From positions 95,172,001 to 95,236,000 of the forward strand of contig CM059432.1 of assembly GCA_030390025.1 (NCBI GenBank): a DNA stretch of 64,000 nt. The letters run 5' to 3'. Source of the stretch: Squalus acanthias (Eukaryota). The notes under the pieces were generated by a model. It had not been told where the DNA came from, did no database searches, and saw only the letters and a program-made list of their open reading frames with translations. How positions within the stretch are numbered: the stretch's first letter is position 1; each line of letters opens with the position of its first letter. The position numbers were made by a program, and so were the translations under genes. Of this stretch, positions 5,080 to 64,000 are shown piece by piece.

Positions 5080-6570
5080 ATTTGGGGATCCCCAAGCCTT
5101 GGCTCTTGTCAATAGCTATGGTGGAGTCATAGCTCTTATCACCAATTCACACCTTGGCCTCTCCCCCGCCCCCCCCCGCCCCCACTTCTCTGGTATCACC
5201 TCTTCCTTTAAGCAGCTCAGTCTGTTCCATCTCTTCTGCCTCTCATTTAAATCCTTGTCATGTCCTACCCTCCCAAGCCGAATGCCAACTTCCTCATCGA
5301 GATGTTTTCCCTCTCTTTTCCCTTAGCTAATGCTCTGTGTCTCCTTATCCTTGGTGACTTCAATCTACACCTAAAGACCCTTATTTATCTCTTTTACAAC
5401 TTCGGTGCCCTCCTATTCTCACTCAATGCCATCCTTCTCATAAACTTGCCCACACATACCTATGGTCACTCTCTCGACCTCACCATCTTTCATGGACTCT
5501 CTGGCCCTAAGGTCTCAATAACTGGCAAGGTTTTCTCAAACACTTCTTTGTTTCCTTCACCATCCATATTGGCTTACCTCTCCCACTTCTATCACCTTCA
5601 CGATCTGCATTTTGAAAACAATATCCTCCATTTCTGTCACTAATTCAATCTCAAGCTCCCAACTCCCTCTTCTATGGTTCTTCCTCCACCAGAATATCTC
5701 TGCTGCTATGGACCTGCTTAAACTGTTAGCTTGTCTGTCTGACATCAACTTGCGAATGAGCCACAACTTCCTCCAACTGAACATTGGGAAGACCGGATCC
5801 ATCATTTTCGGCCCCATTCCCTCGCCATTGATTCCATTCCCTTTCCCAGCCATTTGCTGAGGCTGCACCAGAACAGGCAAAACTTTGGCATCCTATTTGG
5901 CCCTGACCTGAGCATCAAACCCCACATCCTATCCATCATCCAAGACAAACTATTTCCACCTTTGCAATATTGCACAACTCTGCCCTATCTCTGTCACTGG
6001 AACTCTTATTCATGCTTTTTGATCAATTTAATGCCTCCTTTCTGCCTTACCATCATCCACCCTCTGTAAGCTTATCCAAAATGCAGCCTGAGTATCCTGT
6101 CCTGAACTGCGTCCTATTCACCCAACATCTCAAACCATGCACCTAACTCCTTGTCCCCTAACATATTACATTTAATCTCCTTGTCCTCATCTTCAAATCC
6201 CTCCATGGCACTGATCCACTCTATCTCTGCAACTTCTGCTAACTTTATGTTCTATTCCTCGGCACCCTTAGGTCCTCTGACTCTTTTTTGCGGCCCCACT
6301 CCCTTTGCTGCACCATTGGTGACAGGAGCTTTCAGCTGTTTTGTCCCCACTCTCTTGAACTCCTTCCCTAAAGTCCATTGCCTCTCCACCTCTCTCTCTT
6401 CTTGAAAGCTTTCTCAAAGCCTTTCTTTTTGACCAGGATTTCAGTCACCCCCACTTCCACCCTCTAATCTTTCCCTCCATGGCTCGCCATCTGTTTCCCA
6501 ATCTATTTCTATTTGTCAAGTGCAGTGAAAGGTTTGTAGGTTAAAGGCACTATCTAAATGCAAGTAGTAG
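5080..6570 (+). mobile_element. Degenerate L2-clade LINE with internal deletions
   Basis: Endonuclease remnant LILGDFNLH...PTHTYGHSLDL, RT C-terminal remnant CLSDINLRMSHNFLQLNIGKT, L2-type tail aaaggcactatctaaatgcaagtag. Confidence 0.8.
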
Positions 6571-6999
6571 CAGTAGTAGTACCTAAGCTCTCTGAACTTG
6601 TGCTCATGAGGAGAGGATGTGCACTCTATGTTGGGCAGAAATAAACTTTACCTGTGTAGACTTCACAGAGCCCAGTTTAGAGACTGTTACATATGGTGAT
6701 GGGTCTCTGCACATCAGACACCCTTACTGACTGATAAGTATTCAGAAACTGCAGAGTGGCTAACATGAACCCAATAATGTCATGAATTGCTTTCATGACG
6801 CTTTTAGCAAACCATTCTTTCAAATGCACATTGGTTCCTGGGAACCTATATCAACAGCAAATGAATGTCTTGCTATTGAGCTTTCTCCAGATCTCACTGG
6901 GTCAGTAGCACAATTACTGAAACCCAGAAACTCACCTTACTTTTATTTGTTATATGTTTATGTCACACATTGCTTTTGCTTTTGATCCAGTCCATAGGT

Positions 7000-7868
7000 T
7001 ATAGACAGGCTAGGTGAGTGGGCAAACATTTGGCAGATGGAGTATAATGTGGGAAAGTGCGAGGTTATCCACTTTGGCAGGAAAAATAAAAAAGCAAACT
7101 ATTATTTAAATGGAGAGAGATTACAAAATGCTACAGTTCAGAGGGACCTGGGGGTCCTTGTGCATGAAACACAAAAAGTTAGCATGCAGGTGCAGCAAGT
7201 AATCAAAAAGGCAAATGGAATGTTGGCTTTTATTGCAAGGGGGTTGGAGTATAAAAGCAGGGAAGTCCTGCTACAACTGTACAAGGTATTGGTGAGACCA
7301 CACCTTGAGTACTGCGTACAGTTTTGGTCTCCTTATTTAAGGAAGGATATACTTGCATTGGAGACAGTTCAGAGACGATTTACTAGGTTAATTCCAGAGA
7401 TGCGGGGTTTGACTTATGAGGAAAGGTTGAGCAGGTTGGGCCTATACTCATTGGAATTTAGAAGAATGAGAGGTGATCTTATCGAAACATATAAGATACT
7501 GAGGGGGCTCGACAGGGTAGATGCAGAGAGGATGTTTCCCCTCATGGAGAAATCTAGAACTCGGGGGCATAGTCTCAGAATAAAGGGTCGCCCTTTTAGA
7601 ACTGAGATGAGGAGAAACTTCTTCTCTCAGAGGGTCATAAATTTGTGGAATTCTCTGCCCCAGAGAGCTGTGGAGGCTGGGTCATTAAATATATTTAAAA
7701 TGGAGATAGACAAATTTTTGCAAGATAAGGGAGTGAAGGGTTATGGGGAGCGGGCTGGGAAGTGGCTTTGAGCCCTAGATCAGCCATAATCTTATTGAAT
7801 GGTGGAGCAGGCTCGAGGGGCCAAGTGGCCTATTCCTGCTCCTATTTCTTATGTTCTTATGTTCTTAT
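7000..7868 (+). mobile_element. CR1 LINE 3' end (5'-truncated)
   Basis: ORF 7037-7771 with LYKVLVRPHLEYCVQFWSP, RRMRGDLIETYKI and FFSQRVINLWNSLP; 3' UTR ending in (ttcttatg)n. Confidence 0.95.
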
Positions 7869-8289
7869 GAGGATGCTACTGTTTAAAATTTCTGCAACTG
7901 ATTTTTTCCAAAGCACTAAGCTATAATAAAAGCATTATAGTTTTGAGTAATCTGACAGCTATTTGCACAGAAGGATTGTTTTAGAAAAGGCAGTTTCTTC
8001 CTAAAGTGTACATTCTTATCTCCTACTTATTCCACAGGTGGAGTTTGTCATTAACTACTTTTATCCGCATTCATCAAAATGCAGTAGTTAAAGTGCAATT
8101 TATTAAGAAGGGCTACTCACCACTCCCTTGATGCTTGTGTAGCTTTGAACTCACCCCTCCAATGGTTGACCCTGCCTACAGCTTTGGATACTGCTCCTGC
8201 AACCTTGCAAGCTTGAGCACAGAGTTTGGAGACAGAGCTGGATAAATCGAAATCGGAGTGGATCGCAAGCAGGGTGGAAGAATCTGGCG

Positions 8290-10135
8290 ATAATAGGAAT
8301 TGGTGGAGAGGAGGAAGGCAGTTTCTCATGTCCAACTCAAAAGGAGGACTCTAAGTTAAGTATCTAGATATAGTTTCTTTGTGTTTAGTATCTCTGTGGT
8401 TCTTGTTAAACTTGAGTAATATTTTGTCTATTTTCTCTCTAAGTTAGGGCAGTGGGTTAAACTAAAGTTTAGCTAGTAGTCTATTAAATAGAGGCATGGC
8501 AGGGCACCTCAGTTCCATTGAATGCACATCCTGTGCCATGTGGGAAGTCCAGGATACTTCTTGTGTCCTGGACAACCACATGTGCAGGAAGTGTCATCAG
8601 CTGGAGGAGCTCGAGCTCCAGATTTCGGAGCTTGAGCAGCGGCTGGCGTCACTGCAGTGCAACCGCGAGACTGAGAGCTTCGTGGATAGCACATTTCAGG
8701 AGGTGGTCACCCCGCAGCTTAAGAGTTTGCAGGCAGAGAGGGCATGGGTGACTGCCAGACAGTCAAGGAGCACCAGGCAGGTAGTGCAGGAGTCCCCTTA
8801 GTGCATCTCGCTCTCCAACCGGTATTCTGTTCTGAATACTGGTGAGGGCGATTGTTCCTCTGGAGAGTACAGCCAGAGCCAAGTCCACAGCACCATGAGT
8901 GGCTCAGCTGTACGGGGGGGGAGGAGGAAGGTCAGAAATGCAATAGTGATAGGGGATTCAATAGTTAGGGGAACAGACAGGTGTTTTTGCGGCTGCAGAC
9001 GTGACTCCAGGATGGTATGTTGCCTACCTGGTGCCGGGGTCAAGGATGTCACTGAGCGGCTGCAGGACATTCTGAGGGGGGAGGGTGAACAGCATGAGGT
9101 CGTGGTCCATATCAGTACCAATGACATAGGTAGAAAGAGGGATGAGGTCCTGCAGGCAGATTTTAGGGAGCGAGGAAAGAGATTAATAAGCAGGACCTCA
9201 AAGGCAGTAATCTCCGGATTACTCCTGGTGCCAAGCACTAGTGAGTACAGAAATAGGAGGATAGAGCAGATGACTACGTGGCTGGAGAGATGGTGCAGCA
9301 GGGAGGGCTTTAGATTCCTGAGGCATTGGGACCGGTTCTGGGGGAGGCGGGACCTGTACAAGCCGGACGGGTTGTACCTCAACAGGGCCAGGACCAATAT
9401 CCTCACGGGGAGGTTTGCTAGTGCTGTTGGGGAGGGTTTAAACTGGCTTGGCAGGGGGATAGGAAACTGAGCGTAGATTCAGGAGGGAGAGAAGCAAAGC
9501 TGGAGATGGAAGGCAGTAAATTAGTAAGTGAGTTTGGGAGGCAGAGGAAACAAAGGCTAGAAAATAGACAACAAATGGGATTGGCCATGCTTAATGGTAT
9601 ATACTTCATTGCAAGGAGTCCAGTGAATAAGGCAGATGAGCTGAGGGCACAGGTAGACATGTGGAAGTATGATGTCATAGCTATTACTGAAACATGGCTG
9701 AAAGAAGGGCAGGAATAGCAGCTCAACATTCCTGGTTACAGGGTTTTCAGACAAGATAGAGAGGGCGATAAAAAGGAGGGATGGGGTCGCAATATTGGTT
9801 AAAGAAACAATTACAGCTGTAAGGAGTGATGATATGTTAGAAGAATCATCAAATGGGTTGAACTGGAGAACAGTAAAGGGGCAATTACACTGCTGGGCAT
9901 GTACTATAGATCCCCAAATAGTCAGAGGGAGATAGTAGAGCAAATATGTAAGCAAATTTCTGAGAAGTGCAAGAACATTAGGGCAGTAATAGTAGAGGAT
10001 TTCAACCACCCAAACATTAACTGGGATAGAATCAGTGTAAAAGGTATAGAGGGCGCAGAATTCTAAAAATGCATTCAGGAGAACTTTTTAAAACAGTACA
10101 TAGTAAGCCCAAAAAGGGAGGGGGTAGTTCTGGAG
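8290..10135 (+). mobile_element. CR1 LINE 5' part: ORF1 (CxxC..CxxC zinc finger, leucine zipper, SGNH esterase) and ORF2 APE endonuclease start; 3'-truncated
   Basis: CTSC...CRKC followed by a heptad Leu run (8496-8801); IVIGDSIVR and CLPGAGV esterase motifs (8895-9470); YDVIAITETWL endonuclease motif (~9670); internal stop codons. Confidence 0.9.
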
Positions 10136-10955
10136 GTCATGCAGGTGAGCCTGTCCCCCGCTGGTTAAGTTGCTGGCGCCGGTTACGCACCACCTTTTCC
10201 TGCAAGAGAAAGGAAATTGTGTCGGTGAATGTGGTGCAATGTGTTTAGGTGATGTGCCTGTCATGGTTGAATAGCTGACAGTGTGCTCATGCTGTGAGAT
10301 ATGGGTGTAAGGCTTGCAGCAGTGGTAAGTGTATGCGGGTGAGGTGAAGCTATGAATGTGAGGTGTGAGTTGTGTTTGGTAGAGATTGTTGATAGGTGAA
10401 TGATCGGGGTGTGGTGCATTGAGCTGTGTGCGAGGCTAATGGTGCAGATGGTGGGATATTGCATTTGAAGATGAATTCACTGACCTTGACCACTCGTGTG
10501 AGGTCATTGAACTTCTTCCTGCACTGGGTCCAGGTTCTCGGGGCTACACAACTGGCATTTACCACAGTAAATAGTCCGTTGCCTGGAGGGCTTCCTAGAC
10601 CCCTGTGGAAAGAAGACCTCTCTTCTGCAGTTAACCTCCTGGACCAAGGCCTCCAGTGCTGCATCGGACAACCTAGGTGCACGCTCCCTCCCCTGTTGTG
10701 CCACCAATGTTCTCCCAGCCACTTCAATCACCTGTTGCAGGCAGAAGCCTTTAAGTAGTGCAGACTAGCTTTAATTGGAGCTAGTCTTGCACGAACTTGG
10801 GCCTCCTGCTGAGCGTTCAGCCACTCAGCAGCATGTTCAGTGCTGGGCTGAACGCTACAATCATGCTAATCAGCAGGCAGTGCTCCTAACGGGTGCGGTT
10901 AATCGCTCATCGCGTTCCCCGCATCCGTTTACAGGCCTCATCCAATTTCATGGCC
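10136..10955 (-). mobile_element. Harbinger fragment: TIR plus Myb/SANT gene exon 1, intron and start of exon 2
   Basis: RERAPRLSDAALEALVQEV...RTWTQCRKKFNDLTRVVK followed by a gtcagt donor; terminus ccaatttcatggcc at 10955 resembles the other Harbinger TIRs. Confidence 0.85.
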
Positions 10956-11109
10956 ATAGTATTTGAAGTATTTTTGTTTAGTAAAGTTGAGTAAAGAAGG
11001 GTAGAAAAATCACAACTGAGAAAGTAAAAAAAGTCCTAAATTGTGGTCAAATGCTTGACTCCATATCGAGTTACATTTGTTAATTTATACTCATTTTGCA
11101 ATAACAAAG

Positions 11110-13452
11110 CAAGGCCAGGGGGAAAGGGTAGCTCGGGGACCAGCTCCCTGGAGGGTGAGTTCTGCTGCACCCAACGTCTGAGTGCTGCATCGGAAGTTCA
11201 GACCGCTCTCATGCAGTCTCAGCTTGAAACCCCCCAAGCTCTGATTGCTGCCATTGTGGCTGGGTTTACGAGTGTCGACCGGGACTTGCAGGGTGTCGCA
11301 GCATCCCAGCAATCTGCCCTCCATCAGATTGCTAGGAATGCGGAGGTTCTGTCCCGGGGGAGTGGCAGTGGATCAGTGGAGCAGAATCCTGCTGTCCTCA
11401 CTCAGGATGACGGCATTCCTACTCCCACCTCTGCCACTCCGCCATTGCCCTCGCCGCTGTCTGTCATCCAGCCAGCCCAGACTGCTGCCGCCCATGCCGA
11501 GGTGTTACAGTCTACAGCCGGGCCTTCTAGGTTCACAGCTACTCGAGGTCGTCCTGTAAGGCCATCTGAAGTCTCCCCCATGGAAACTCAGCAGCCTTCC
11601 ACCAGCCATGCTGCAGCCACAGGAGGAGCACTTCGTAGGAGCATGAGAGTAGGAAAAGGCACATGAACAACAGGCACTAAGGGATCGCACAAGGGAGATT
11701 AGTTAATATTTTTGCTGTAAATATGTGTTCAGTGATTTTCGATAAATTTATAAATTTTGTTTGGAATGTTTGTTTTGTGGTGTCTCTCCTTTCAGCTTTG
11801 TGCCCAGGAGGATGCTGTCATATTCCGTGACAGAGGGATGGTATGATGGGGATGTGGTGAGCAATGGGGATCTGGGGTTTCATTCATTGGAATCGGAGAC
11901 TGATGAGGCGTTCACAGACAGCCCGTCTCCCTCGTCCTCCTCCTGAGGTGGTGCCACAATCTCTGGTGGCAAGGGCTGCGCCCTCATGATGGCCAAGGTG
12001 TGAAGCATGCAGCAGACCACCACGAAATGGGACACCCGCTCCAGCAAGTACTGGAGGGCTCCCCCCGAGCAGTCAAGGCAACGGAACCGTTGCTTCAGTA
12101 GCCCGATGGTCTGCTCGATGATGTTCCTGGTGGAAACATGGCTCTCATTATATGAGTGCTGGGCACGAGTGTTGGGGTTGCGGAGAGGAATCATGAGCCA
12201 AGTGCAGAGCGGATAGAACCTTGTCTCCGAGCAGCCACCCTCAAGTTTGTTGTGGTGGCTGGAAAATTGCTGGCACACCGGACTAACACAGGATGAAGGT
12301 ATCATGGCTGCTGCCAGGATAGCGGGCATTGACATTGAGGAATTGCTGGGCATGTTTGCACACCACCTGCACATTAAATGAGTGGTAGCCTTTGGGGTTA
12401 TGGAAGAGCTCAGGATTGTTATACGGCACTTGCAAAGTCACGTGTGTGCAGTCGATGGCGCCCTTCACCATGGGGAATCCCGCTATCTTGGCAAAGCCAC
12501 ATGCGCGCTCAGCCTGCTTCTCGCTGCTCAGAGAGAAGACAACGTAGTCCCTTCTCCTGGTGTAGAGAGCCTCAGTGACCTCCTGGATGCAGTGATGGAC
12601 GGCGAACTGGGAGATGTTAGCTATGTCTCCTGCTGCAGACTGGAAGGATCCACTGGCAAAGAAATTGAGGTGACCTTGACTGCCACTGGGAGAGCCGTGT
12701 TTGCCCTGCTCTCAGGCCACAGGTCTGGTTGCAGGAGGAGGCAGAGTTCTGTGACCACCTCCTTGGTGAAGCGTAGCCTCCTAATATACTGCTCCTCGCT
12801 TAAGTGGATATAAGAGAAGTGCTGTCAGAAGACCCTAGGTGGGTAAGGCCTCCTGTTGAGAGCACTCCTGGCACTCCTCCTCCTCCCTCTGCACGCATCT
12901 TCTCCCCTTCTTCGCTGCCTACGCTCCCTCTGCCGAAGATCCTGGAGCGCGAGGTCGACTCCCAGTACAGCCCCCATGACTGTGAGCAAAATAATGAAGG
13001 CGTTCTCCACTTGCCCCAACACTCCCTGTTACCTTAGAAGCTTGAAAGAAGTTAATAAAGCTGCTGGAGTTGCAGAAAGTTTTTACAGAGCCAGTCAAAC
13101 TGAACAAACATGTCAACTGCAAGTGATTGCTGATGATCCCTTTAAATATCACTGCTGGAGCCTCCTTCCTGCTTGTCAACGCTTGCTCAGCTCGTCATAG
13201 TTAAGGCATCAGTAGAGCAGCGAAATCCAATGTAGTAGATCGGGCGCCAAGTGAGCGTTGCACACTCACTGACATGACGATCTGCTTAATTTCAATCATT
13301 TCAGCGATCACTTCTATCGGCAACGCTGCCGGCCACCCCAAAATGGCGGCCATCGCGGGACCCACTGCCAGCTGGCGTAAGAGTGGCGGCTGCCATTATT
13401 TCGCCCGATTGTGGCATTAACAGGTGCCGCTAAACCCCCTAATTTCTAGGCC
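11110..13452 (-). mobile_element. Harbinger transposon: Myb-gene 3' part (+) convergent with a frameshifted transposase (-), TIR at 13452
   Basis: Terminus ctaatttctaggcc; transposase motifs listed in the next feature; + strand ORF 11043-11666 ends in ALRRSMRVGKGT, like other copies. Confidence 0.9.
11880..12977 (-). pseudogene. HARBI1-type DDE transposase, frameshifted
   Basis: RRPYPPRVF, GAIDCTHV, KGYHSFNVQVVC, ARYPGSSHD, NIIEQTIGLLKQRFRCLD and VVCCMLHTLAI spread across several frames. Confidence 0.93.
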
Positions 13453-18313: not shown

Positions 18314-19389
18314 ATGGTCAGAAAACAGAGAGTAGGAATAAACAGGTCATTTTCGGGTTGGCAAGCTGTAATTAGTGGGGTATCACAAGGATCAGTGCTT
18401 GGGTCTCAGCTATTCACAATCTATATCAATGATTTGGATGAGGGGACCAAATGTAATATATCCAAGTTTGCTGATGATACAAAGCTAGATGGGAATGTAA
18501 GTTGTTAGGAGGATGCAAAGAGGCTTCAAGGGGATATAGACAAGCTAAGTGAGTGGGCAAGAACATGGCAAATGGAATATAATGTGGAGAAATATGAAGT
18601 TATCCACTTTGGTAGGAAAAATAGAAAAGCAGGGTATTTTTAAATGGTGAGAGATTGGGAAATGTTGGTGTTCAGAGGGACCTGGGTGTCCCTGTACACA
18701 AATCACTGAAAGTTAACATGCAGGTACAGCAAGCAATTAGGAAAGCAAATGGTATGTTGGCCTTTATTACAAGAGGATTTGAGTATAAGAGTAAAGATGT
18801 CTTACTGCAATTATATAGGGCTCTGGTGAGACCACACCTGGAGTATTGTGTACAGTTTTGGTCTCCTTACCTAAGGAAGGATATACTTGCCACAGAGGGA
18901 GTGCAACGAAGGTTCACTAGACTGATTCCTGGGATGGGGGGATTGTCCTATGAGGAGAGATTGAGTAGACTAGGCATATATTCTCTAGCGTTTAGAAGAA
19001 TGAGAGGTGATCTCATTGCAACATACAAAATTCTTACAGGGCTTGACAGGGTAGATGCAGGGAGGATATTTCCCCTGGCTGGGGAGTCTAGAACCAGGGA
19101 TCATAGTCTCAGAATAAGGGGTCGACCATTTAGGACTGAGAGGAGGAGAAATTTCTTCACTCAGCGGGTGGTGAATCTTTGGAATTCTCTACCCCAGAGG
19201 GCTGTGGAGGCTCAGTCGTTGAGTATATTCAAGACAGTGATTGATAGATTTTTGGATATTAAGGGAATCAAGGGATATGGGAATAGTGCAGGAAAGTGGA
19301 GTTGAGGTAGAAGATCAGCCATGATCTTATTGAATGGCGGAACAGGCTCGAGGGGTCGAATGGCCTACTCCTGCTCCTATGTTCTTATG
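18314..19389 (+). mobile_element. CR1 LINE 3' end (RT, 5'-truncated)
   Basis: QGSVLGSQLFTIYINDLD...KFADDTKL; ORF 18655-19305 same family as 7037-7771; tail ctatgttcttatg. Confidence 0.95.
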
Positions 19390-26060: not shown

Positions 26061-28032
26061 TAAAAACAGAAAATGCTGGAAATCCTCAGCAGGTCAGCCA
26101 GCATCTGTGGAGAGAGAAACAGAGTTAACGTTTCAGGTCTGAAACGTTGGGCTGGATTTTCCGGGGGGTCAGCGGGCGCAATCAGTGGCGGGTTGGGTGG
26201 GAAAGTGGGGTTTTTCCCCAGCAGGTTGGGACCCCGCTGTGAACCCGCCGCCACGCGCCTTTCCCCAATGTCGGGTCTGTGAGCGCTGAGCAGACCCGAT
26301 CACAGCAGCGGGGAACCCAATTCAGGTCATTATGACTTTGTTTAGAGATGATAAAGAGTACATTTGAGCTCACCGTTTGATTTGACGTGCTTGCCCACGG
26401 GGTCCTCGCTGCTCGGGGATCATCTCTGTTAAGCTGAGGCGGGAGTTCAGTGGCCATTGAATCAGCTGTTGAGTTGACAGCTTCAAATGTAAAGTAAAAG
26501 CTCCCACCTTACAGAAATATCTTTCCTCAGCCACAAGCTCTTCCTCACTGCATTTCCACAACAGATTCACCATGCTGCAAATCTTTACACAAGTCTCCAT
26601 CCTGTCTGACCTCATTACCCCTCTCACCATTGACAGATCACTTCTGTCATCTCTACTTCACCTGCCATCGATTCCATCAGCATGGGTGCCCTGTATACTC
26701 TCTCACCTTGGTCCTCAGAATCCAAGCACGAATCAGCCCCAACACTTCATCACCAGGCACACCAGCAGCACCAACAACAACACCACCAACCTTCTCTGCA
26801 ATCACTTGATGCTGCACAGGACACAGGGCATCAGCACCCAAGCACATTGCTGCCCGGGAGGCCAGGGATGGCCTCACCATGGCCAGATTTACTTCACTTG
26901 ACGCTGGCTGCCACATGATGCGCCAGGTTGGTACCACCCCACACCAACACCATAAAGCATCCCTACAATGCCCAAGCCATTCCTTTCACATTCATGACCA
27001 TTGCAGGGGGAGGTGGGGGGGGGGAGAAGGTACAGTTATGTCTCACTATTCACTGCAACTCATGAAGCCACTTCCAAAGGTGCACACAAATCTGTGCAAG
27101 AAAGCAAAGTGTTGAAAATAAAGGTTTCAATGTTTGACACCACATTAACAGAAACTTTACATGAACATTGCATAAAACACCTAAGTGCCTACCCTTGTGT
27201 GTTGTTAGTTGGTATGATTGCACTAGGATGAGGGTGAGTGTGAGGGTTGGCTAGTGAGATGGGGAAGTGATAATGTAGATAGAGAGGGATGGGTGGAGGT
27301 GCAAAGTAAGTTGGTGTGAGTAAAGATGTGCAGGAGTGAGTAGGGAAGGCAGAGTGATGAGAGGCACAGCAGGATGAGGTTGAATGTGGCTTTGTTGTAT
27401 TAACGTTTTGTAATCTACTGAGATCATTGAAACGTTTGCGGCACTGCACCCAGATCCTCCTGACCACATCCCTGCTTGTGCCCTCCTCTGCAATGTGCAA
27501 CCAGGCTGTGTTGATCTCCTGGGGAGGTCTCTTCCACCCATGAGAAAGGAAGAGGACCTCTCTGCGTGCTGTGAATCCCTCCATAAACATATGGAGGGAG
27601 TCATGGGAGAGCCTGGGTGCAGCCCTGCACCTCTGTGTAGTGATTGTCAGTGTTTGCAGCACCTCAATGCTGTAGAATACTGACAGCACAGATGTCAAAA
27701 TAAAGTTGGCCACGGTCCCTTTAAGGAAACCAGCTGATGATGCATCATCAAATGATGTCACCAGACTCGCTTCCTCTAATTGGCCGGCAAATGCGTTGGT
27801 CGGGCTTAACAAGCCCAATCAAGGGAAATTCATTTCAAAGGCTGGAACGGAGACAGCAGCGGGGTTGGGACCCGCCACCGACGTCGTCCGCCATGGACCC
27901 GCCGAGGTCAGCAAAATTGCAGCTGTTAACTCTGTTTCTCTCTCCACAGATGCTGCCTGACCTGCTGAGTATTTCCAGCATTTTCTGTTTTTATTTCAGA
28001 TTTCCAGCATCACCAGTATTTTGCTTTTGTAG
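26061..28032. mobile_element. Miniature fold-back Penelope-like insert (two inverted pLTR ends, ~195 bp without the nested element) with 13-bp TSD
   Basis: 26061-26148 and 27925-28032 match the terminal repeats of the element at 29223-30416; taatattaagaag is duplicated at 26048-26060 and 28033-28045. Confidence 0.88.
26149..27924 (-). mobile_element. Non-autonomous Harbinger (Myb/SANT exon retained, transposase core deleted), nested in the Penelope insert
   Basis: Imperfect TIRs gggctggatttt / aaaattgcagct; 3-bp TSD gtt; APRLSHDSL...WLHIAEE...RIWVQCRKRFNDL in ORF 27189-27818. Confidence 0.88.
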
Positions 28033-29286
28033 TAATATTAAGAAGGTTTCTTAACTTTAATTAAAAATTAGCGAATCATTCTGTACAATGCCATTTCTGA
28101 GGCTTGCAGTCTTCTCTTCTTAGGGAGTAATCTATCGATTTTACTACATGGGATATCCCCTATTTACTTAAAACTTCCTGATCAGTCCTTACAGTCACTA
28201 CATTTTTGAAGTCTTTTTACACTTCAAGGCACTCTTTTCCTTTCCGTATATAGCTCATTTACTTGTGACACAGTTTTCCCACTTTCTAAACACTGTTCAA
28301 AAGCAATCACACTGAATTTAATAACATGTATTAACACCCTTGTTTAAAATGAACATTTCTTTTCACAGGTTGTGAATAATCTGATTTATATATGTCAAAT
28401 GCAAAATTATTGTAATTTAACTATGAATCATCTGGAAAATAAGTCTGTAAGAGGTCAGCTTCTTCCAAAGCTAATTAATTTTTCCTGTTGGTTGGTGCCA
28501 ACTTTGGTCACCAAAGTGATTTTCGTTGAAAGCTGTCGGAGGCCACTGTTTGACCTCTGTATAACTCCCTCACCTAGAAACCTGTTTCCTGTTTTAGAAG
28601 TTCATACACTGAATTCTAAACATCCTTTCACATTATTCAGAAATAAGGTAATGTTATACTGGTAAACTGTTCTCAACGGTCCAATCCATTGTCAACTATC
28701 AAATATATCACTGTAGTCTGTTGATTTCCTATTTAGACATTTATCAACGATGACAGCTGCAAAATTCTTGCCAGACTTGCTTCACAGCTCCTGCATTTAT
28801 GTAAATGGATATTATTTTTAATTTTAACTCAGCCCATATTTTATATATGCGGCACTTTATACATAATGTTGGGATTTTATAATTAGGTTGTGCAATTGAA
28901 CAATTTCCACACAATAAATGTGTAATCAATTTCCATAACACAACTCCTCAGCACAAACATTGACATTTATGTATTTGGGCTGCTGGTCCAAAGTATTAAG
29001 TGACCAGATACTTGAATTCCCAGTTGCTTTTAATTCACAGAATTTTGTGTATGGTTGTTGGTGGTCCCTGACTCATTACTGCTGGTTGGACCTGGAAGCT
29101 AAACTGTAAATAGTGTGTGGGAATTGATCTGCCGTTTGAACTTTTATGCAAAGAAGTTATTTGTGTGCAAAGACATACTTAACAAGAAGTTACCTTTAAG
29201 AACAAGTTATTAAACTACTTGAAATAACAACAGAAAATGCTGGAAATACTCAGCAGGCCAGGCAGCATCCGTGGAGAGAGAAACAG

Positions 29287-29323
29287 AGTTAACGTTTCAG
29301 GTCTGGGACCCTTCATCAGAACT
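29287..29323 (-). ncRNA. Minimal type I hammerhead ribozyme motif
   Basis: Minus strand reads agtt-CTGATGA-agggtc cca gacct-GAAA-cgtt-aact: conserved core, stem II, palindromic ACGT stem III and 4-bp stem I. Confidence 0.8.
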
Positions 29324-29492
29324 GGAAAAAGCTGGAAATGTAACAGATTTTAAGCAGGTGCAGAGGCAGGGAGAGGGGGGAGGGGAGGGGAGGATCTGAA
29401 GGAATAGTCTGTGCTAGGGTAGGAGGCAGGAAAGATAAAATGTTGCAAATGGGGATGGCAAAATCATACAGCCTGAAAAATGGGGGCAGGGC

Positions 29493-30239
29493 TTATAGTC
29501 TGAAATTGTTGAACTCGATGTTGAGTCCAGAAGGTTGTAAAGTGCCTAATCGAAAGATGAGGTGCTGTTCCTCGAGCTTACGTTGAGCTTCATTGGAATA
29601 GTGTAACAGGCCGAGGACAGAGCGATCAGAGTGGGAGTGAAGCGGAGAATTAAAGTGACAGGCGACCGGAAGCTCGGGGTCACCCTTACGGACTGAACGG
29701 AGATGTTCCGCAAAGCGGTCACCCAATCTGCGTTTGGTCTCCCCAGTGTAGAGGAGACCACATCGTGAGCAGCGAATACAGTATACTAAATTGCAAGAAG
29801 TACAAGTGAATCGCTGTTTCACCTGGAAGGAGTGTTTGGGGCCCTGGACAGCGGGAAGGGAGGAGGTAAAAGGGCAGGTGTTGTATCTCCTGCGCTTGCA
29901 CGGGAAGGTGCCGGGCGAAGGAGAGAGGGTGTTGGGGGTGATAGAGGAGTGGACCAGGGTGTTGCGGAGGGAGCGGTCCCTTCGGAATGCTGAAAGAGGA
30001 GGGGAGGGGAAGATGTGTTTGGTGGTGGGATCACGCTGGAGGTGGCGGAAATGGCGGAGGATGATCCGTTGAATGTGGAGGCTGGTGGGGTGAAAGGTGA
30101 GGACAAGGGGAACCCTATCGTGGTTCCGGGAGGGAGGGGAAGGGGTGAGAGCAGAAGTGCGGGAAATGGAACGGACACGGTCAAGGGCCGTGTCAACCAC
30201 AGTAGAGGGGAATCCTCGGTTGAGGAAAAAGGAAGACAT
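29493..30239 (-). CDS. Penelope ORF C-terminus: RT thumb/linker and GIY-YIG endonuclease (partial, open frame)
   Basis: FLNRGFP, RVPLVLTFHP, NLVYCIRCSRCGLLYTGETKRRLGDRFAEH, PVACHFN and EQHLIFRLGTLQPSGLN. Confidence 0.9.
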   Translation of the reverse strand: MSSFFLNRGFPSTVVDTALDRVRSISRTSALTPSPPSRNHDRVPLVLTFHPTSLHIQRIILRHFRHLQRDPTTKHIFPSPPLSAFRRDRSLRNTLVHSSITPNTLSPSPGTFPCKRRRYNTCPFTSSLPAVQGPKHSFQVKQRFTCTSCNLVYCIRCSRCGLLYTGETKRRLGDRFAEHLRSVRKGDPELPVACHFNSPLHSHSDRSVLGLLHYSNEAQRKLEEQHLIFRLGTLQPSGLNIEFNNFRL

Positions 30240-30281
30240 ATCTGCACCTGCTTAAAATCTGTTACATCTCTAGCTTTTTCC

Positions 30282-30318
30282 AGTTCTGAAGAAGGGTCCC
30301 AGACCTGAAACGTTAACT
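30282..30318 (+). ncRNA. Minimal type I hammerhead ribozyme motif
   Basis: agtt-CTGAAGA-agggtc cca gacct-GAAA-cgtt-aact. Confidence 0.8.
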
Positions 30319-31409
30319 CTGTTTCTCTCTTCACGAATGCTGCCTGGCCTGCTGAGTGTTTCCAGCATTTTCTGTTGTTACTTCAGATTTCCAGCATCAG
30401 CAGTATTTTGCTATTGTATTAAACTACTTGAGTTCATCCTCACTCGAAAAGGACTTTTTTACTATATTGTTTGGAACTATAAAGTTCTGAAAAAGGCTTT
30501 TAGATCTACTTCTCATTGGACATGCCATCTTTCTGCATTTATACGGACAGTCAGGGGTTGATTTTCACTGCCTCTGCCGAATGGGAAAAGAGTCGTACTG
30601 CTCCAGAAATCATGGTGCTCAACCTACCATCTCATTCTTGCTCCTGATCCATTTGCTGCCATTTCCAACCTGTCCTGGCAATGGGCAGCCAGAGCACCTA
30701 GCTGTTTCAGGTGGTGTCATTAAGGCATGCAAATCGGGGTTCTATGATGTAGGCAGGGCCCCAATGCAATTTTCATGTACCAATAAGGGGAACTTGCACT
30801 GCGCTCGAACCAGTGGTCCTTAAAAGGTCCTTTTGTGTGTCCCCCACCCCCACCTATCCTCCAGCTTGTTTCCAAATCATTTGAAAAAGCAAAGAAAATC
30901 AGAAATTAAGACACACTTTCACTTGCACTGAAAGAATCCTACTGACGCATATTGAGGAAGTGATCACAGGGACAACTTATTCTGGCACTCCTTTTAGAAT
31001 TCATTGAGTAAAGACTCCAGCAGATTCTATGAAAATCCATTGGTACACTTGGGTGATTTTATTACTTATACAGGTTTAGGAGCTACCTTCCAAATTCCCC
31101 AGTGAGCATGAAATGGTACGAAACCAATGATTCTGGTTGTTCTTGGAAGGAAGTGCTTGAGTGTTATATCTCAAGTAATGGAGAGGATTCCTGTGGGCAT
31201 TTATATCTATGGTGTACTCGCTCGACCAGCAATCATCCATAACAATTACTTCAGTGAGCATCTCATAATAATTCTTACTGTAAATTTAGTCTGTACGGTT
31301 TATGCTGCCTTTCCTCGTAAATATGGGAAACAAGTCCTACTTCTTATCTATATTTTAACCATGTACTAGAAGTTACTATTGGTGATGCCACTATGTGAAT
31401 GCTTATAGC

Positions 31410-31690
31410 CCCGAGTCAAATTCCTCAAGGTGGATAAGTCATCGGGCCCTGATGGCATGCACTGTAGGCTGTTGAAAGAAATCAGAGAGGACATGGCAGA
31501 GACTCTGGCCACAATTTTTCAGCCCTCCTTATATATGTAAATTGTACTCTGGTATTGGAGAGTAGCCAATGCTCAAGAAGAGAGAGAAGGATAAAACAGG
31601 TAGATTGCTCCAGCAGAGAGCTGGCAGAGACATGGTGGATTGAATAGCCTCTTTTTGTACTGTAAATTTCTATGGCTTTATGATTCTAAT
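31410..31690 (+). mobile_element. Degenerate CR1 fragments
   Basis: gtggataagtcatcgggccctgatggcatgcac...gaaagaa (KSxGPDGxH motif) followed by a CR1-like tail. Confidence 0.6.
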
Positions 31691-31794
31691 TGATTTGGTT
31701 AACTGGCGGTCTGTGCCTAGAAATTCCATAACACAAAAAAACTGGCACAGGCACCACTATGCAAGATATGTCCGTGCCCGATCAAAAAGCGCAC

Positions 31795-32062
31795 CATCAT
31801 CCCTTTTGTCTTTTAATTTCTTCTGCCTTCAATCCTAGCACAGGCCTTCCCTTTTGTTCTTTCCTCCCCTCCCCCCTCCCCCTGCCCCTGCACTTGCTTA
31901 AAACCTGTTACATCTCTAACTTTTTCCACTTCTGACGAAGGGTCGTCGACCTGAAATGTTAACTCTGTTTCTCTCTCCACAGATGCTGCCTGACCTGCTG
32001 AGTATTTCCAGCATTTTCTGGTTTTACTTCAGATTTCCAGCATCCGCAGTATTTTGCTTTTG
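31795..32062 (+). mobile_element. Solo Penelope pLTR with a degenerate hammerhead (31928-31964)
   Basis: Matches 30241-30416; CTGACGA-agggtc gtc gacct-GAAA-tgtt-aact. Confidence 0.85.
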
Positions 32063-32667
32063 TATTAATGTTTTTTTAAACCTGTGTGAGTATACTTTGC
32101 TTTAAAAAACATTTAAATATAACTCTTTTTCAAATTATTTCTGTGGCAAATAAATACCAAAACATCACAGTCCAAAACCCTTTGCTCAAGTTAGTTGAAT
32201 CTCAGCTGTCTTTGCACCCTCACTCTTCAAAATAATCCCTGGTTCTAGAGTTTGTGGCAATCTTGGAAATATTATCACAGTTTTTTTTTATCTAGCCCCT
32301 TAAGAATCTTGAATACTTGAATGATGTGTCTCCAGAGCCTTCTCTTTTCCCCTGTAAACAAACCCAGGCTCTTTAAGCTCTCCTTGTAGCTCATATGCTT
32401 TAAGCTAGGTATCAGTTTGGTTGCCGTTTTCTGCACTGTCTGGATATCATTGCTGTAATATGGTGACCAGAATTATACACAATGTTCCAGGTGGGGTCAT
32501 ACCAGTGCATTGTGCAGACTCATTATCACCTCCGAGGATTTGTGATCTATCCCTCTGGCTATACATCCTAACAGCTGGGCAGCTTCCCTCACTGCTGTGC
32601 AAACTACTCTGTTGGTTTCAATAAGCTATCCATCTTGTGGCCTTTCCCTTACAACACTGAAAATGAT

Positions 32668-34933
32668 CACCTGGAATTTCCATGGGTATTCTCCCGATCT
32701 CCTGCTGGAGCTTTGGTGGAAATTTGCAGAAAAGACAGCGTAAATGTCTGTTTACACTTTATCTACAGCGTTCCTGCCGGCCGTCTGCTGAACTAATGGT
32801 GGGAGATTTGGAGTGCGCTGCGGAAATTCCATCCCTAAGGATTTATGGTGGGGCTTCTGAGGAAGAGTCACGGTAGCTGTACCTGAGAGAAGTTTATTTC
32901 GGTGGAATGTGACTGGAAAAAAATTGCCGGTTTCAACTGGAGCTAACGGCCGCTGAAAATGGCCGCAACGTTAACGGGACAAAATTGGTCTCGGGGGGCA
33001 GGAGTTTGTTGGCGCAGCTCTTACCTTCTGTGCGACGCCATCCTGGTGGCGTTGCTGGAGGGATCCGGGACGAAGTTCCCGTCCAGGTACGGTGTTGGAG
33101 CTTCACACAGCCTCTGGGAGCGAGGCTGTGGAGCTCGCAATGAATTGTGGGCAATGAAGAGGTCAGAGAATTAAAGGGGCCATGCACACTGAAGCAGTAC
33201 AAAATAAAATCAAGTGAAACAATGTAGTTTTCAGCCCTTTCTGCCTTTAAAAAATATTTAACATTAAAAAGAAGTCCCTAATGTGAATATTCAGCTCTTC
33301 AAGCTGAATTCCCTTCCTAAACTCAACAAATGGGAAAACTGCCTCAGCACTAACACAAATGGCTCAGCAAGCCAGGGAAGGGGCACCCAGGGTCTCGCAC
33401 GCAGCACTCCAGCTTGGTGCAGGGGATCAACACTGCAAGAGAGGTCCTCTACCCACAGGGGCCAAGAGGCCCTACAGAAAGAACGATGTGGGAGTACATC
33501 ACCGAGGCCGTCACTGCCAGCAGTGTCGCCCCCACCACCTGGCTCCAGTGCCCAAAGAAGCTTCATGACCTGAGATCACTGGTCAAGTTAATTGAATGCA
33601 TCTTCAAAAGCCAGTCTCCTACCAACTGCACCACTAGCGTCACACACTGCTCAATGCATGACCCCCAATCACTCACCTACCAACAATCTGCACCAATCAC
33701 GAGGCACATTTCCCTTGAAGGAAGCGGTGCTGGCCATTGTTGGCAGGGGCATGGCTCAGCCCTTGGCCAGCGGCGGGGCTGAAAGGATACAAGATGCTGG
33801 TATCCTCATACATTATCTTCTTTCTAGCATGCACCTCATGCTTTCCTACCCTCCCGTCATCACAACTCCACCCTTGTGCCTTTCTCATTTCACACACCCA
33901 AGAAATGCAGCCTGCCCAGCCAGTGGGTCAACAAGAAGAGGGAGAGGAGAGTGAAGAAGAACACAAACACTCTCAGCCACCAGCTCCTCAAGGTCAACCA
34001 GCAAGGCCATTTGCAGTGTCCCCCACTGAAAGTCAGCAGTCTTCCACCAGCTATGCTGCAGCCACTGGAGTAGCACTGTGTGATATCAGTAGGGTAGGCA
34101 AAGGCACACACAAGACAGTCACTAAGAGAATGCATACGGGTGATGAGTTGATTTCTTGATGTCATATTGGATGGCGACATGTATATAGGCTGGATTTGAA
34201 AGTTTGCTTTGTGCTGGCTTTTATTTCAGCATCGTGGTCAAGAGGACGCTGTGATGGCCAGTAACAGATGGAAGGTAAGGTGTGGGACTAATGTTGAAAG
34301 AGGAATTGGGGTTGTAGTCACTGGGACCGCAGGTGGATGATTCCATCCCTGATGTCCCGGCTACAAAGGTGCTGTCTGGGTTGCATCCCTCTGCTTCCTC
34401 CTTTTCTGTGCCTACAAGCGAATGCTGTAAATGTAAAATGACAGCATAAAATGCTGGAAATACTCAGCTGGTCAGGCAGCATCTTGACCTGAGACGGGAA
34501 CTCTGTTTTTCTCTCCATGGATGTTGCGTGACCTGCTGAATATTCGCAGCATGATCTGTCTTCTCAAAGGCCTTCATTTACCATCCAAGCCCTTGCAAGC
34601 ATCCAGCAGCACTCCCTGCACAATTAAAAAACTTTTCACATCTATTGCAGCAAGCCACCACTTCAATAAAAAAAAATTAAATTCCAAAACCTTGTGTGTG
34701 TCCCTTTAAGAGGTTCAGACAGCGCCTCTGTCAGCCTGCTTGCATGCCAATTGACATCAACACGCTGCCATTTCTTCTTTTAGGGCGCTACCAGTTATTG
34801 GCAGTGCAAAGGGGGATACGAATATTGTGGCCACCGCAGGACTCGCCACCAGCTGGTGAAAGAGCGGCGGCCACCATTTTATCGCCATTTCATGGCGCTA
34901 CAGAGTGGCGGTAAGTAGATGAATTTCCAGCCC
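32668..34933 (+). mobile_element. Non-autonomous Harbinger with Myb remnant and an embedded Penelope palindrome (copy A)
   Basis: MWEYITEAV...TTWLQCPKKLHDL (33414-33590); end gaatttccagccc; Penelope pLTR-derived inverted repeat at ~34420-34552; left boundary tentative. Confidence 0.8.
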
Positions 34934-35241: not shown

Positions 35242-37075
35242 TGCCTAGAAATTGATTACCTTAGCGTCGGCCATTAACGCTGGTTTTCTTGAAAAAATGG
35301 CAGCTGCCTCACTTCGGGCCGCTTCCAGCGCGGAACACGGCAGCCGCCATTATGGCAAGGGCCATAGCGCTGCCGTTGACAGCGCTGGCCTCTGAAATGT
35401 AAATTAGCAGATCATGACATCAATCGGCGTGCAACGCCTGACTTGATTCCACGATTGCTAACTTGGACATTTTCGCTCATCATTCAACTGGGTCCTAAGC
35501 ACGCACAGAAAAGCGTGCGTGAAGCAGCCCTGCAGCAACTCAGTCAGCACTTCTTAAATGGACACACACCTCTTTTAGGTAAGTTTGGATTTAAGCTTTT
35601 GGACTTTAAAAAAATATTTTATTGAAGTAGTGCTTGGTGCAATAGATGTTAAAAGTTTTTAAGTGTGCAGTGAGTGCTGCTGGATGCTTGCAAGGCTTTG
35701 GATGGTAAAGGAAGACCTCTGAGAAGACAGAATATGCTGGAAATACTCAGCTGATCAGGCATCATCCGTGGAGAAAGAAACAGAGTTCACATCTCAGTTC
35801 GAGATTCTGGCTGACCTGCTGAGTATTTCCAGCATTTTCTGCTTTTATTTCAGATCTCCAGCATCCAATCGCAGAGGGAAGAGGAAGAAGCAAAAGAAGA
35901 AGTCGCAGAAGAGGAAGACGCAGAAGAGGAAGAAGCAGAAGAGGAGGAAGCGGAAGGAAGAATGCAACCCAGACAGCCCCTTTCTGCCTGCCATATCCGG
36001 GATGGAATCATCCGCCTGCGGTCAACCACTGGCTGGGCAGGCTGGATTTCTTGGGTGTCTGAAATGAGGAAGCTGCAAGGGTAGAGTTGTGATGAGGGGA
36101 GGGGGGAAAAGCAAGAATTCCATGCTTACACCATGTGCACCTTGTAAATCAGAAGATATTGTGGGATGCGGGGAAGTGGGATGTGAGAAGAAGGATAATG
36201 TATGAGGATACAAGCATCTTGTATCCTTTCAGCCCTGCCGCTGGCCAAGGGCTCAGCCATTCCCCTGCCAAGAATGGCCTGCACTGTCTCCTCCAAGGGG
36301 TGAGGTGAAGCTAGGAATGGTACAGATTGTTGGTAGGTGAGTGATGGGGTGGGGGGACGCGGCGGTCGTGTAATGAGCAGTGTGTGAGGCTAATGGTGCA
36401 GTTGGTAGGAGACGGCTTTTGAAGATGCATTCACTGATCTTGACCAGTGGTCTTAGGTCATGAAGCTTCTTTGGGCACTGGAGCCAGGTCATGGGGGCAA
36501 CACTGCTGGCAGTGACGGCCTCGGTGATCTGGTCCCACGTTGTTCTTTCTGGAGGGCCTCCTGGCCCCTATGGGTAGAGGACCTCTCTTACAGTGTTGGA
36601 CCCCTGCCCAAAGCTGGAGTGCTGCATGCGAGACCCTGGGTGTCCCCTTCCCTGGCTTGTTGAGCCATTTGTGTTCGTGCTGAAGCATTTTTTTATGTCT
36701 GGAAGGCAGTTGAGCTTTAAGAGCTGAAGACTGCCATTTCGGAATTATTTTTAATGTTTATTTTTTTCCAGAAGGCAGTTGAACTCTAAGGGCTAACGAC
36801 TGCCTATTTTTAAATGATTTTTATTTTTTTGCATTTTAGAAGGCAATTCTCAATGACAAGCTAGCTTTAAGAGAATGCTGCCTCGCTCCAGGGACGCTAT
36901 GGCCACGTTACATTGGGCCTCCTGCCGAGACAACACTGCAGGTTTTGCGCTGCGCTAATGTAAATCAGCAGGCAGCACCAAAATACTGGTGCTGCCTGCG
37001 CTCTTTTGTGGGCGGCCGTTAACTTCAGCTCACGGTGACACCGGCAGATTTCCGGCCTAATTGAATTTCTAGACC
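35242..37075 (-). mobile_element. Non-autonomous Harbinger, same family (copy B), inverted relative to copy A
   Basis: TIRs tgcctagaaattga / ttgaatttctagacc; TWLQCPKKLHDL (36253-36492); Penelope-derived palindrome at ~35733-35865. Confidence 0.85.
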
Positions 37076-61304: not shown

Positions 61305-61340
61305 GACCGCACTTTGGCGTTTGGACTCCTCAGAACCTGG

Positions 61341-62214
61341 ATGGACCTGAATGAACCCGACTGGTCAAACGTGGCAAAACACCTAACATCAAACGGGCTG
61401 AGCTCACCGGCTGACCAGCCTTACCTAAAGTTTGCTGGTCGCCACCACAGTGGCGGAGAGGGAAGCTCGGGATCAGAAGAAAGCTTGAGATTAGCGGGAT
61501 CCTCGGTTACCAATCTGGACACTGATAGGAACCACCTTCTGCAAGGGAGGTCAGTAGACGCCTACGTCCCCTTTGGCCACAGCTCGGAAGAGCTCGCAAC
61601 TTTTATTACGGATCTGGATCAAACAGGCAAACTGTTCCTGTCTAGAGGAATAAAGAGGGAATTTGTGACACATCCATCTATTGAAATGTACCAAAGTTTG
61701 CCTGTGGCAGCTGCCCAGGGTCCGAGTACCTACCCGCACGATGTTCCCAACAATTTCATGCACTCCAGTACAAGTTCTCCCGTCTATGTTCCTACCACCA
61801 GGGTTAGCTCCATGATCCAGAGCATCCCCTATCTCCAGGGCAGCGGATCGAGCCAACAGAGTCACCCCGTTACTAACCACTCGGTCTGGACTCAGCCTGC
61901 CACAGAAAGCTCAACCTATAGCTCTAGCAGCCCTCATCATATGGTTTCCAGCAGATTCTCCTTCTCCCCGAGCCCACCAATTTCAAACGGAGCTGCTCGA
62001 GATTCCGCCTACAGTAACAGTCTGAATATGAATGGCAGAGATCAGTACACTAGCCCTTTGGCCAGGCCTCTTAATGGATCTTACCCCAGCCCTTACACTT
62101 CTTACGTTGGACCACAGTTGACTTCGGCTTGGACTGCAGGGTCTTTTGAAAACTCAATGCTGCATAGCTTGCAGAGCAGACCTACAACTATGCCTGTCCG
62201 GGGACCCAATGGAG
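61341..62214 (+). CDS. GATA6: GATA6 first coding exon (N-terminal transactivation region; the zinc fingers lie beyond the window)
   Basis: The ORF contains the GATA4/5/6 N-terminal motifs MYQSL, SSPVYVPTTRV, PYLQ, RFSFSPSPP, RPLNGSYPSPYTSY and FENSMLHSLQ. An in-frame 115-codon extension (MDLNEPDWS...) precedes MYQSL, as is typical of GATA6. Acceptor after a pyrimidine tract: ctccag|G at 61304/61305. Phase-1 donor G|gtaagt at 62214/62215. Confidence 0.93.
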
Positions 62215-64000
62215 GTAAGTCAACCCTCTCAGTGTGTTACTTTTGCATTGTAACCGGCAGTCATTTACGTATCAACTCATATTTGTTCCACCCTCGTGGG
62301 CCTGTTTACAGCCTGAAATTGTGTTCTTGTTCTTTGACTTTAAAAATCTTGCAAACTTTGTAGTTTAGCATGTTTCTCTTGCCTGTGAAGCCGATCAGTT
62401 CCTATTGCGAATACCTGGCCTCTCATTACATTCTTTGATTTCTCAGGAGCGTTCATAGCTAAGGAATTTCTGCCTCGCGTTTAATAACAATGGAACTAAA
62501 GTCTTTCGTTCTGTTATTACTTTAACTCTTGGTGTAGTCTAGTAGAAAAGGTAGGAGTCAGGTGTTCATAATATGTGACTGTAATTTAGCCAGTGTTCTT
62601 GGGCAACATATATCATGTAATCAACAGTAAACAGTGGTAGGAACTTACAGGTAAAAGCCACGAAGTCAGCAAGAATCAATGCAGCGGATATAATCAGAAC
62701 AAAATGGGAGCTTTATAATTTAAGATTAGTTCACTTATTGTGTATTCGTTCAGTGAAGATGACCTTATTAGCATCTAAAAGCACAAACTATTAAAAGTAT
62801 CGAACAATTATAAATTATTAAATATGTCAAACTTTGCTAACATACAAGTATATTCAAGAACAATGTAGAAGATAAAACATTGTTATTAAGGTTGCGGGTA
62901 AATCTAAATCATAGACTATCAAAGGTGATGGAACATAAGAAGAAACATCATCAGGTTACATATCCGTAGACATCCAACAATACTGAAATACAGAATTGGG
63001 AAACGTACAGAAACTACAGCAACAGAATTAGTATATTAAACTGAAATGGCGAAGCCACCTGTCAAGCACTTACCACCCAATTGTATGAATTTAGCAGGAT
63101 TGTTTCCTCTTTGATAAATTCACAATGACACATTCTGTCTCACAGCTCTCATTCGAATATATTTGTAACGGAAGATTTTTGCTGATTAACTCTGCAGTAA
63201 CTGTATTTTGTTGGATAAAATGCTGAAATAATAAATCATGCAAAGCTGTATAAAAATGTAACAGTTTGCGAACGCCGTAAATGCATATTCTGGTAAGCAA
63301 AATAAAATAATAATTATAAGAACTTTAGATTTTTACTCAGCGAGGAGCTATATTCTTGTATCAGGTCACCATTGAATTGCCTGTGCAATGACACTTGAGT
63401 CTTCAATCATCCTCAGTGTATCATATCCTGGAATTAATACTGAATTAGACTGCAGTGTCTTTTATATTATTAAACGATTACTTATATTTTGGAAATGTAC
63501 ATGTATTGATCGCCCAGAAACTCAACAGATGCCTACATGGGGTGAAGTAGATTGTATCTGAAACAGTTGCTGACACACACATCTCTATAATACACACACA
63601 TATAACATGTAATTCTGTTTTCTAGTCCACCAAATAGTAGCGAAATAATCCGAAAATTATATTGTAGTTCTGGTTGTGATGTTTTTGGCTTTTAAAAACA
63701 TTTCATTTCTTTACATGATCATGTGAGCTCCTAAAATCAAACGAGGTGGACCTGCAGATCCCCTGTTTTAATTTGCCAAATAATTGTAAAGTGATAATAA
63801 CATCGTACAGTCTCGCTAAACGAAATCCAAAATGCTGTATAATTTATTAGTCATATCCTGGTAAGATCCATCCGCCTTTGACAATGGGAAACAATAAGAT
63901 TTGAAAGGGAAAATGAACTCTCAAGGGGGACACAATTATATTTTATAAAGTAAAAACGTCAGCGGTGTCTAACATCGATAATCTTAAAGCAATCGCCAAC

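Follow-up and report, generated by a model that had tools for sequence, protein, structure and literature searches.

Two inverted hammerhead motifs in a fold-back Penelope-like insertion, probably old and most likely inert, in the genome of Squalus acanthias

When an insertion carries one hammerhead ribozyme motif in each of two inverted repeats, can either motif be expected to cut the RNA in which it lies? This question is raised by positions 29223–30416 of a 64,000-nucleotide (nt) stretch of the shark Squalus acanthias (assembly GCA_030390025.1, contig CM059432.1, positions 95,172,001–95,236,000, forward strand; hereafter designated the window), for which an earlier sequence-only reading had proposed a probably young Penelope element with two ribozymes. 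We found that the unit is a 5′-truncated, fold-back copy of a Penelope-like retroelement of the Neptune/Nematis type with a hammerhead in each terminal repeat. As a whole, the locus is very probably an old insertion, dead on arrival, of a very abundant family in the shark genome, and the folding models described below indicate that both hammerheads are most likely inert in this place. The features of the unit and of its nearest relative are as follows.

29208–29222, no strand: left target-site duplication (TSD), 15 bp; its last 3 nt fit the element too, leaving the boundary ambiguous by 3 nt.
29223–29364, minus strand: tail-less pseudo-long-terminal repeat (pseudo-LTR) in the sense of the open reading frame (ORF), forming the element's native 3′ end (from the arm comparison and the joint 29365/30241).
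29287–29323, minus strand: minimal type-I hammerhead in ORF sense, predicted to cut at 29291/29290 (motif descriptor).
29365–29492, minus strand: remainder of the native 3′ region, from the stop codon to the repeat arm, with part of its sequence also in copy C (29225–29440 matches 32026–31812, 84%).
29493–30242, minus strand: 5′-truncated ORF with the end of the reverse transcriptase (RT) region, a CX4CxxC linker, the GIY-YIG endonuclease (EN) and the stop at 29493–29495 (ORF, Pfam, alignment).
30241–30383, plus strand: inverted, 5′-truncated second pseudo-LTR copy, antisense to the ORF (arm comparison).
30282–30318, plus strand: minimal type-I hammerhead in antisense to the ORF, predicted to cut at 30314/30315 (motif descriptor).
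30384–30416, plus strand: 33-nt tail, at the right end only (the common family ends are at 30376/30380).
30417–30431, no strand: right TSD; the 5 nt with which it begins are also found behind the tail of copy C (4/5 in copy A), by microhomology or as a preferred target.
31812–32062, plus strand: neighbouring solo repeat copy C, with tail and degenerate hammerhead (31928–31964), the sole possible same-strand partner of the right motif.

The two inverted arms (29220–29364 and 30241–30385, 145 nt each) differ at 7 positions (4.8%; 95% interval, 2.0–9.7%), and the TSD noted by the sequence-only reading is indeed perfect, 15 of 15 nt being identical on the two sides of the whole unit. The left arm (29223–29364), which shares the orientation of the ORF, represents the native 3′ repeat, whereas the right arm (30241–30416) is an inverted, truncated second copy of the repeat and alone carries the 33-nt tail; contig data show that the joint 29365/30241 joins opposite strands. 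No direct (tandem) upstream repeat is present in the unit. The unit thus has an inverted truncated pseudo-LTR copy together with a tail of the 30–40 bp class at a single end, a layout typical of Penelope-like insertions (PMC8557442), and the two arms flank a GIY-YIG frame, in agreement with the earlier view of the unit as a Penelope element whose terminal repeats carry minimal hammerheads.

A fold-back of this kind might also arise from two events, namely an older solo repeat followed by a second insertion, or by a local inversion or conversion, beside it. Penelope-like elements do tend to insert in or beside earlier copies (PMC6765202), and the family is dense here, with five insertions within 10 kb (copy A at 26061–28032, the present unit, and copies C, D and E). 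However, a single 15-bp TSD brackets the whole unit, and both arms carry variants missing from copy C (in the stem II loop and at a site near 30347), indicating that they derive from one source. Moreover, the same pattern of one tailed and one tail-less end is found in all three independent fold-backs in the window. An origin in two events is therefore very unlikely.

The reading frame is open from 30251 to 29493 on the minus strand, without stop or frameshift, as had been claimed. It covers, however, merely the C-terminal part of the element protein (249 codons, the RT catalytic core being missing), and conserved residues in it are substituted. The Pfam GIY-YIG family PF01541 matched with an E value of 4e-4 at 21.1 bits, under its cut-off of 22.6. 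A search of longer proteins gave 14 matches, the best four of which were shark and ray proteins with 61–66% identity over 96–100% of the query; a shark RT-EN protein was 66% identical over the full query, and the GIY-YIG domain is C-terminal. The RT family PF00078, found in 5 of the 14 matches, lies upstream in these relatives, whereas the RT core is absent from the truncated copy at 29493–30242. In an alignment of 12 sequences, a CX4CxxC linker (C115-x4-C120-xx-C123) precedes the endonuclease. A CX2-5CxxC motif in the RT-EN linker is described as a mark of the Neptune and Nematis clades (PMC8557442), and our label Neptune/Nematis type is based on this motif, not on RT phylogeny. Relative to the family majority, the present copy has Tyr for Cys120 in the linker and Thr for Ile166, so that YIG reads YTG. 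Like the units described in PMC8557442, it combines a C-terminal GIY-YIG domain of a family with RT in front of it, the linker motif, 5′ truncation and an adjoining inverted truncated copy; unlike them, it lacks the RT core and a tandem upstream repeat and has lost one linker cysteine.

In both 37-nt motifs, stem I has 4 bp and is followed by CUGANGA, an additional A, a stem II of 5 bp, GAAA, CG, UU and the returning strand of stem I; their sole difference is at N7. The conserved core (C3-U4-G5-A6-N7-G8-A9, G12-A13-A14, A15.1-U16.1 and H17) is present in both, which confirms the intact cores that had been seen in the two repeats. Across the 64 kb, a structural descriptor matched exactly these two sites, against no match in 300 dinucleotide shuffles, and a looser pattern gave three, the third being the degenerate copy at 31932–31960 (chance mean, 0.45; 0 of 100 shuffles reached three). 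On the other hand, Rfam covariance models applied to 28500–31200 with E values up to 5 returned no hammerhead family and only two chance-level matches, so that the hammerhead search proposed earlier succeeded with the descriptor and not with Rfam. The folding z-scores of the motifs against shuffles (−0.68 to +0.55) were unremarkable. The predicted cut after 30314 agrees with standard hammerhead numbering; U at position 17 is a weaker hammerhead cleavage site. A 22-nt motif of the repeat was found at 0 loci in metagenome contigs and 0 in viral contigs, and none of the public runs listed as holding the repeat is recorded as RNA, which has no bearing on expression.

The architecture closely resembles that of the minimal hammerheads reported in metazoan Penelope-like elements (PMC4209133), with a type-I core, no stem III beyond a palindrome, a 4-bp helix I, an extra base between positions 9 and 10.1 (here an unpaired A before stem II in both motifs) and a location in the terminal repeats; such motifs have been reported there in the fish elements Xena, Poseidon and Neptune. 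Several details differ. The host is a shark, and one of the supplementary files of that paper contains no shark term. Stem II, of 5 bp here against 7–8 bp in Schistosoma, is closed in both motifs and in copy C by a G10.1-U11.1 wobble instead of the highly conserved G10.1-C11.1 pair, which the published descriptor does not demand. About 960 bp separate the two motifs, compared with 100–700 bp for the hammerhead pairs on opposite strands in Schistosoma. Finally, U17 extends the palindrome ACGU (15.2–16.2) to the 6-nt AACGUU; thus, the stem III palindrome recognized by the sequence-only reading is there and would permit dimers, but it is 6 and not 4 nt long. In the folding models, the homodimer in the active geometry has −8.5 kcal/mol, 8 kcal/mol above the best fold, and the additional A14-U17 pairs lower its energy to −10.9 kcal/mol and would hence compete with the active core.

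What, then, would happen to these motifs in RNA from this locus? Lying on opposite strands, the two motifs never share one RNA and cannot form a dimer in cis. Furthermore, in read-through RNA of either strand the complementary arm is transcribed first, and the motif would be trapped in a 145-bp duplex. The calculated energy of this arm duplex is −260.9 kcal/mol, and in folds of the whole element for both strands the far arm takes up 36 of the 37 positions of the motif (P 0.95–1.0), while stem II forms with P of about 1e-18 or less. The long hairpin predicted earlier for such transcripts is thus well supported, but it buries the ribozyme, a consequence that had been overlooked. No intact same-strand partner for either motif was found inside the element or in copy C. 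The active dimer of the right motif with copy C has −0.5 kcal/mol, whereas the best fold reaches −20.7 kcal/mol, and in a 30241–31990 transcript this dimer is 29 kcal/mol less favorable than the ensemble; when the right repeat is folded in isolation, its stems I and II still form with P of only about 4e-7. The published metazoan minimal hammerheads require a partner or a protein (PMC4209133, PMC11167929, PMC6765202). Collectively, the models indicate that both hammerheads are most likely inert at the locus. They would probably score working minimal hammerheads poorly as well, and hence do not show the family motif to be dead.

The age of the insertion was approached with contigs of four public runs (X5, X6, X8 and X9, from organisms A, B, C and D, respectively) aligned to 29365–31150. 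The family is very abundant in all four organisms: the summed contig depth is 2–9 million over the repeat, a figure that is not a copy number, versus 8–16 on the unique flank, and 6,537–11,956 contigs per run align to the family at 99% or more. One single-copy contig per run spans the right flank and ends in the tail, at 30388 (X5), 30394 (X6), 30394 (X8) and 30393 (X9), the final letter of the record being in each case the final aligned letter; the orientation of the record coordinates is our interpretation of the alignment table. An empty site would match just 4 of the 23 tail letters reached by the cross-species contigs. In the flank, X5 (another sample of organism A, the organism of the window itself) shows 3 substitutions in 763 nt, whereas X6, X8 and X9 show 16, 17 and 36 in about 755 nt, amounting to 2.1–4.8% divergence for organisms B–D. 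Since the contigs of B–D run from unique flank into the tail, the insertion, on a plain reading, predates the split of organisms with that flank divergence. At the pedigree mutation rate of another shark, 7e-10 per generation (PMC10587355), the divergence corresponds to 15–34 million generations (range, 7–171 million), an uncalibrated and probably too high figure that says only "very old".

These results do not support the earlier "probably young": the arms are 4.8% apart, conserved residues of the endonuclease region have changed, contigs of three other species show the tail junction, and both signs of youth are weak, since at 4.8% divergence a 15-bp TSD would stay perfect in 48% of cases and at 2.4% a frame would stay free of stops in 70%. 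The insertion is probably old. If it were young, with ribozymes active at the locus that cut read-through transcripts of either strand, the intact cores of both motifs, the perfect TSD, the open frame and the near-identical copies that the family still has somewhere would all be accounted for, but not the tail junction in the other species, the 7 differences in 145 positions between the arms, the absence of a same-strand partner inside the element or the vanishing probability of stem II. Furthermore, a single minimal motif of Schistosoma showed no detectable cleavage and its dimers little (PMC4209133), and the Anolis motif needed protein, with no reads ending at its cut site (PMC11167929). We regard a young and active insertion as extremely improbable.

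Several observations nevertheless weigh against an old and inert insertion. The contigs reach only 23–24 letters into the tail (29 in X5), under the 31-letter bridging rule, and the aligned region covers the right junction only. The arms may stem from two templates, in which case 4.8% is no clean clock. The frame has no stop or frameshift, for which P is 0.70 for the lack of a stop alone at 2.4% and 0.17 with an assumed indel rate. The 16 ORF differences from the family majority, found among the 24 element variants listed (247 weaker ones follow), comprise 8 synonymous and 8 non-synonymous changes (P 0.03–0.15 versus neutral), a split suggesting that some were already present in a source element under selection and do not reflect decay. 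The lone arm difference within the motif falls at the free position N7. Finally, the folding models omit tertiary contacts, help by proteins and transcripts that start between the arms; a plus-strand RNA of the latter kind would hold both the right motif and copy C.

Such an RNA is also the basis of another explanation, in which an old insertion has been partly co-opted. Here the right repeat, facing GATA6, would start or lie in a plus-strand RNA without the left arm, and its free hammerhead would pair with copy C, 1.65 kb downstream on the same strand; alternatively, the fold-back duplex would act as regulatory double-stranded RNA. The Penelope repeat of Drosophila virilis has an internal promoter (PMC2377424), the insertion has apparently been kept in four organisms, and the motif differs between the arms solely at N7. 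This preservation of the motif is, however, within chance (P 0.13), in copy C one pair of stem I is broken and the palindrome has decayed, and the calculated energy of the dimer of copy C with the right motif and the folding of the isolated right repeat are as unfavorable as given above; retention is the neutral expectation in slowly evolving genomes. If the right repeat did drive a self-cleaving RNA toward GATA6, it would represent a co-opted ribozyme near a developmental gene, for which we found no evidence. As had been pointed out, GATA6 lies about 30 kb away: its exon with the ATG at 61341 (plus strand), 95–96% identical to shark GATA6 proteins, is 30,925 nt from the element, but nothing except this distance ties the two together. 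Co-option appears very improbable.

How might a dead-on-arrival fold-back of this form have been produced? From the anatomy of the unit and from the Anolis carolinensis Poseidon element PAc, which was studied in vitro (PMC11167929), we infer the following course. At an AT-rich site, the GIY-YIG domain would cleave the two strands with an offset of 15 bp, and both of the freed 3′ ends would prime reverse transcription on a pseudo-LTR copy of the same source. Priming of one end at the tail-end start site would give 176 nt of complementary DNA (cDNA), and priming of the other at a start site 33 nt further in would give about 1,020 nt, reaching the ORF, after which both cDNAs would be joined at 30241–30242. 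The hammerheads are passengers of the terminal repeat; to judge from other species, they would probably cut in the tandem RNA of the source element as slow dimers assisted by a protein or a partner. Both cDNAs ran past the scissile bond, which means that their templates were uncut or religated.

For the Anolis element, PMC11167929 describes a tail that corresponds to the interval separating two RT start sites, cleavage and extension of both strands, and unprocessed RNA as the principal substrate. PAc shares with the present unit a hammerhead beside the tail, an AT-rich target with ATT, two kinds of ends a tail length apart and copies read through the ribozyme. It belongs to another clade, and its RT starts at a site non-homologous to the cut DNA, whereas 3–5 nt at both ends of the shark unit fit target and element alike, reflecting either microhomology or target preference. 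The bases that follow the tail in three independent insertions are TATTAA (at the 30417–30421 site), TAGTAA (28033–28038) and TATTAA (32063–32068), owing either to a true tail about 5 nt longer or to a target preference of the endonuclease.

The cDNA 5′ ends in the window bear on the role of the hammerhead itself. With copies D and E counted once, 6 of the 7 independent ends go past the scissile bond, and 3 of the 7 stop in stem II (equivalent to 30300–30305), 9–14 nt beyond the bond, whereas none lies at the bond. The stops in stem II (26135–26152, 34486–34559 and 35727–35800) include two from one insertion, and the pattern was spotted post hoc. It is conceivable that the hammerhead serves as a transposition hub, in which two repeat RNAs held together by AACGUU, and kept uncut by the A14-U17 pairing, would be passed to a dimeric RT priming at the two ends of a single staggered break. 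Such a hub would yield the one-tailed form in all three fold-backs and could explain both the ends in stem II and their absence from the scissile bond; we consider it very unlikely. Within the contigs, the commonest 3′ loose ends among those listed are at 30376 and 30380, adjoining the tail-less end. None of the 24 loose ends listed (5,756 more are on record) is at 30314/30315, which is not evidence against cleavage. Joints at 30302–30306 were set aside, because the variant stem II loop would halt alignments there anyway. One loose-end consensus in run X9 has A at 10.1.

In copy A (26061–28032), the repeat forms a very short fold-back with a TSD of 13–14 bp, split by a 1.8-kb Harbinger-type element (about 26149–27924) that has a Myb/SANT-like match (E 0.003) and whose duplicated 3 bases are the hammerhead cleavage triplet. 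In the hammerhead of copy C, stem I contains a mismatch and the palindrome has undergone a CpG-to-TpG change, and no TSD is evident for 31812–32062. Copies D (34422–34559) and E (35727–35865) are paralogous short, decayed fold-backs that occupy the same site within two copies of another repeat, which face in opposite directions; one old insertion was thus probably copied along with its host element. In the right flank of the main unit, 30685–30924 has a contig depth of 100–320 versus 8–16, suggesting a further low-copy repeat.

Both the kind of motif and the layout have been published (PMC4209133, PMC8557442, PMC11167929), and in Drosophila virilis the form of Penelope flanked by inverted repeats is the most frequent (PMC2377424). 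No description of the shark family itself was found in the literature consulted on Penelope hammerheads and on Penelope in sharks, most subscription papers, Repbase and some supplements aside. The animal non-LTR retrozymes carry a type-I hammerhead related to that of Penelope pseudo-LTRs, like the motifs here, and retrozymes with a hammerhead are present in the one chondrichthyan sampled (bioRxiv 10.64898/2026.07.22.740005); they are, however, non-coding head-to-tail tandems with two ribozymes per RNA, whereas the present unit is coding-derived and inverted and hence is not a retrozyme. The insertion is one of very many Penelope-like copies in the shark and illustrates features published in 2014, 2021 and 2024. 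Its use is modest, as a clean example of a fold-back with both types of ends and a full TSD; the abundant family could reveal genome-wide whether templates are ever cut at the hammerhead in vivo.

Elsewhere in the window, 61263–62360 is the first coding exon of GATA6, with a long N-terminal extension. An ESM Atlas search with this exon gave only hits under 0.9, and the name was settled by the matches to shark GATA6 proteins. A sigma-70 promoter and terminator scan was disregarded as inapplicable to a vertebrate. Remnants of other mobile elements lie at 6998–7768, 18625–19302, 8802–9467 and 11883–12437. Judging from the translations, we take the remnants to include two C-terminal RT fragments of long interspersed nuclear elements and one esterase-like ORF1 fragment, presumably of CR1/L2 type; a Harbinger-type DDE transposase fragment is also among them (Pfam DDE_Tnp_4, E 2.6e-12).

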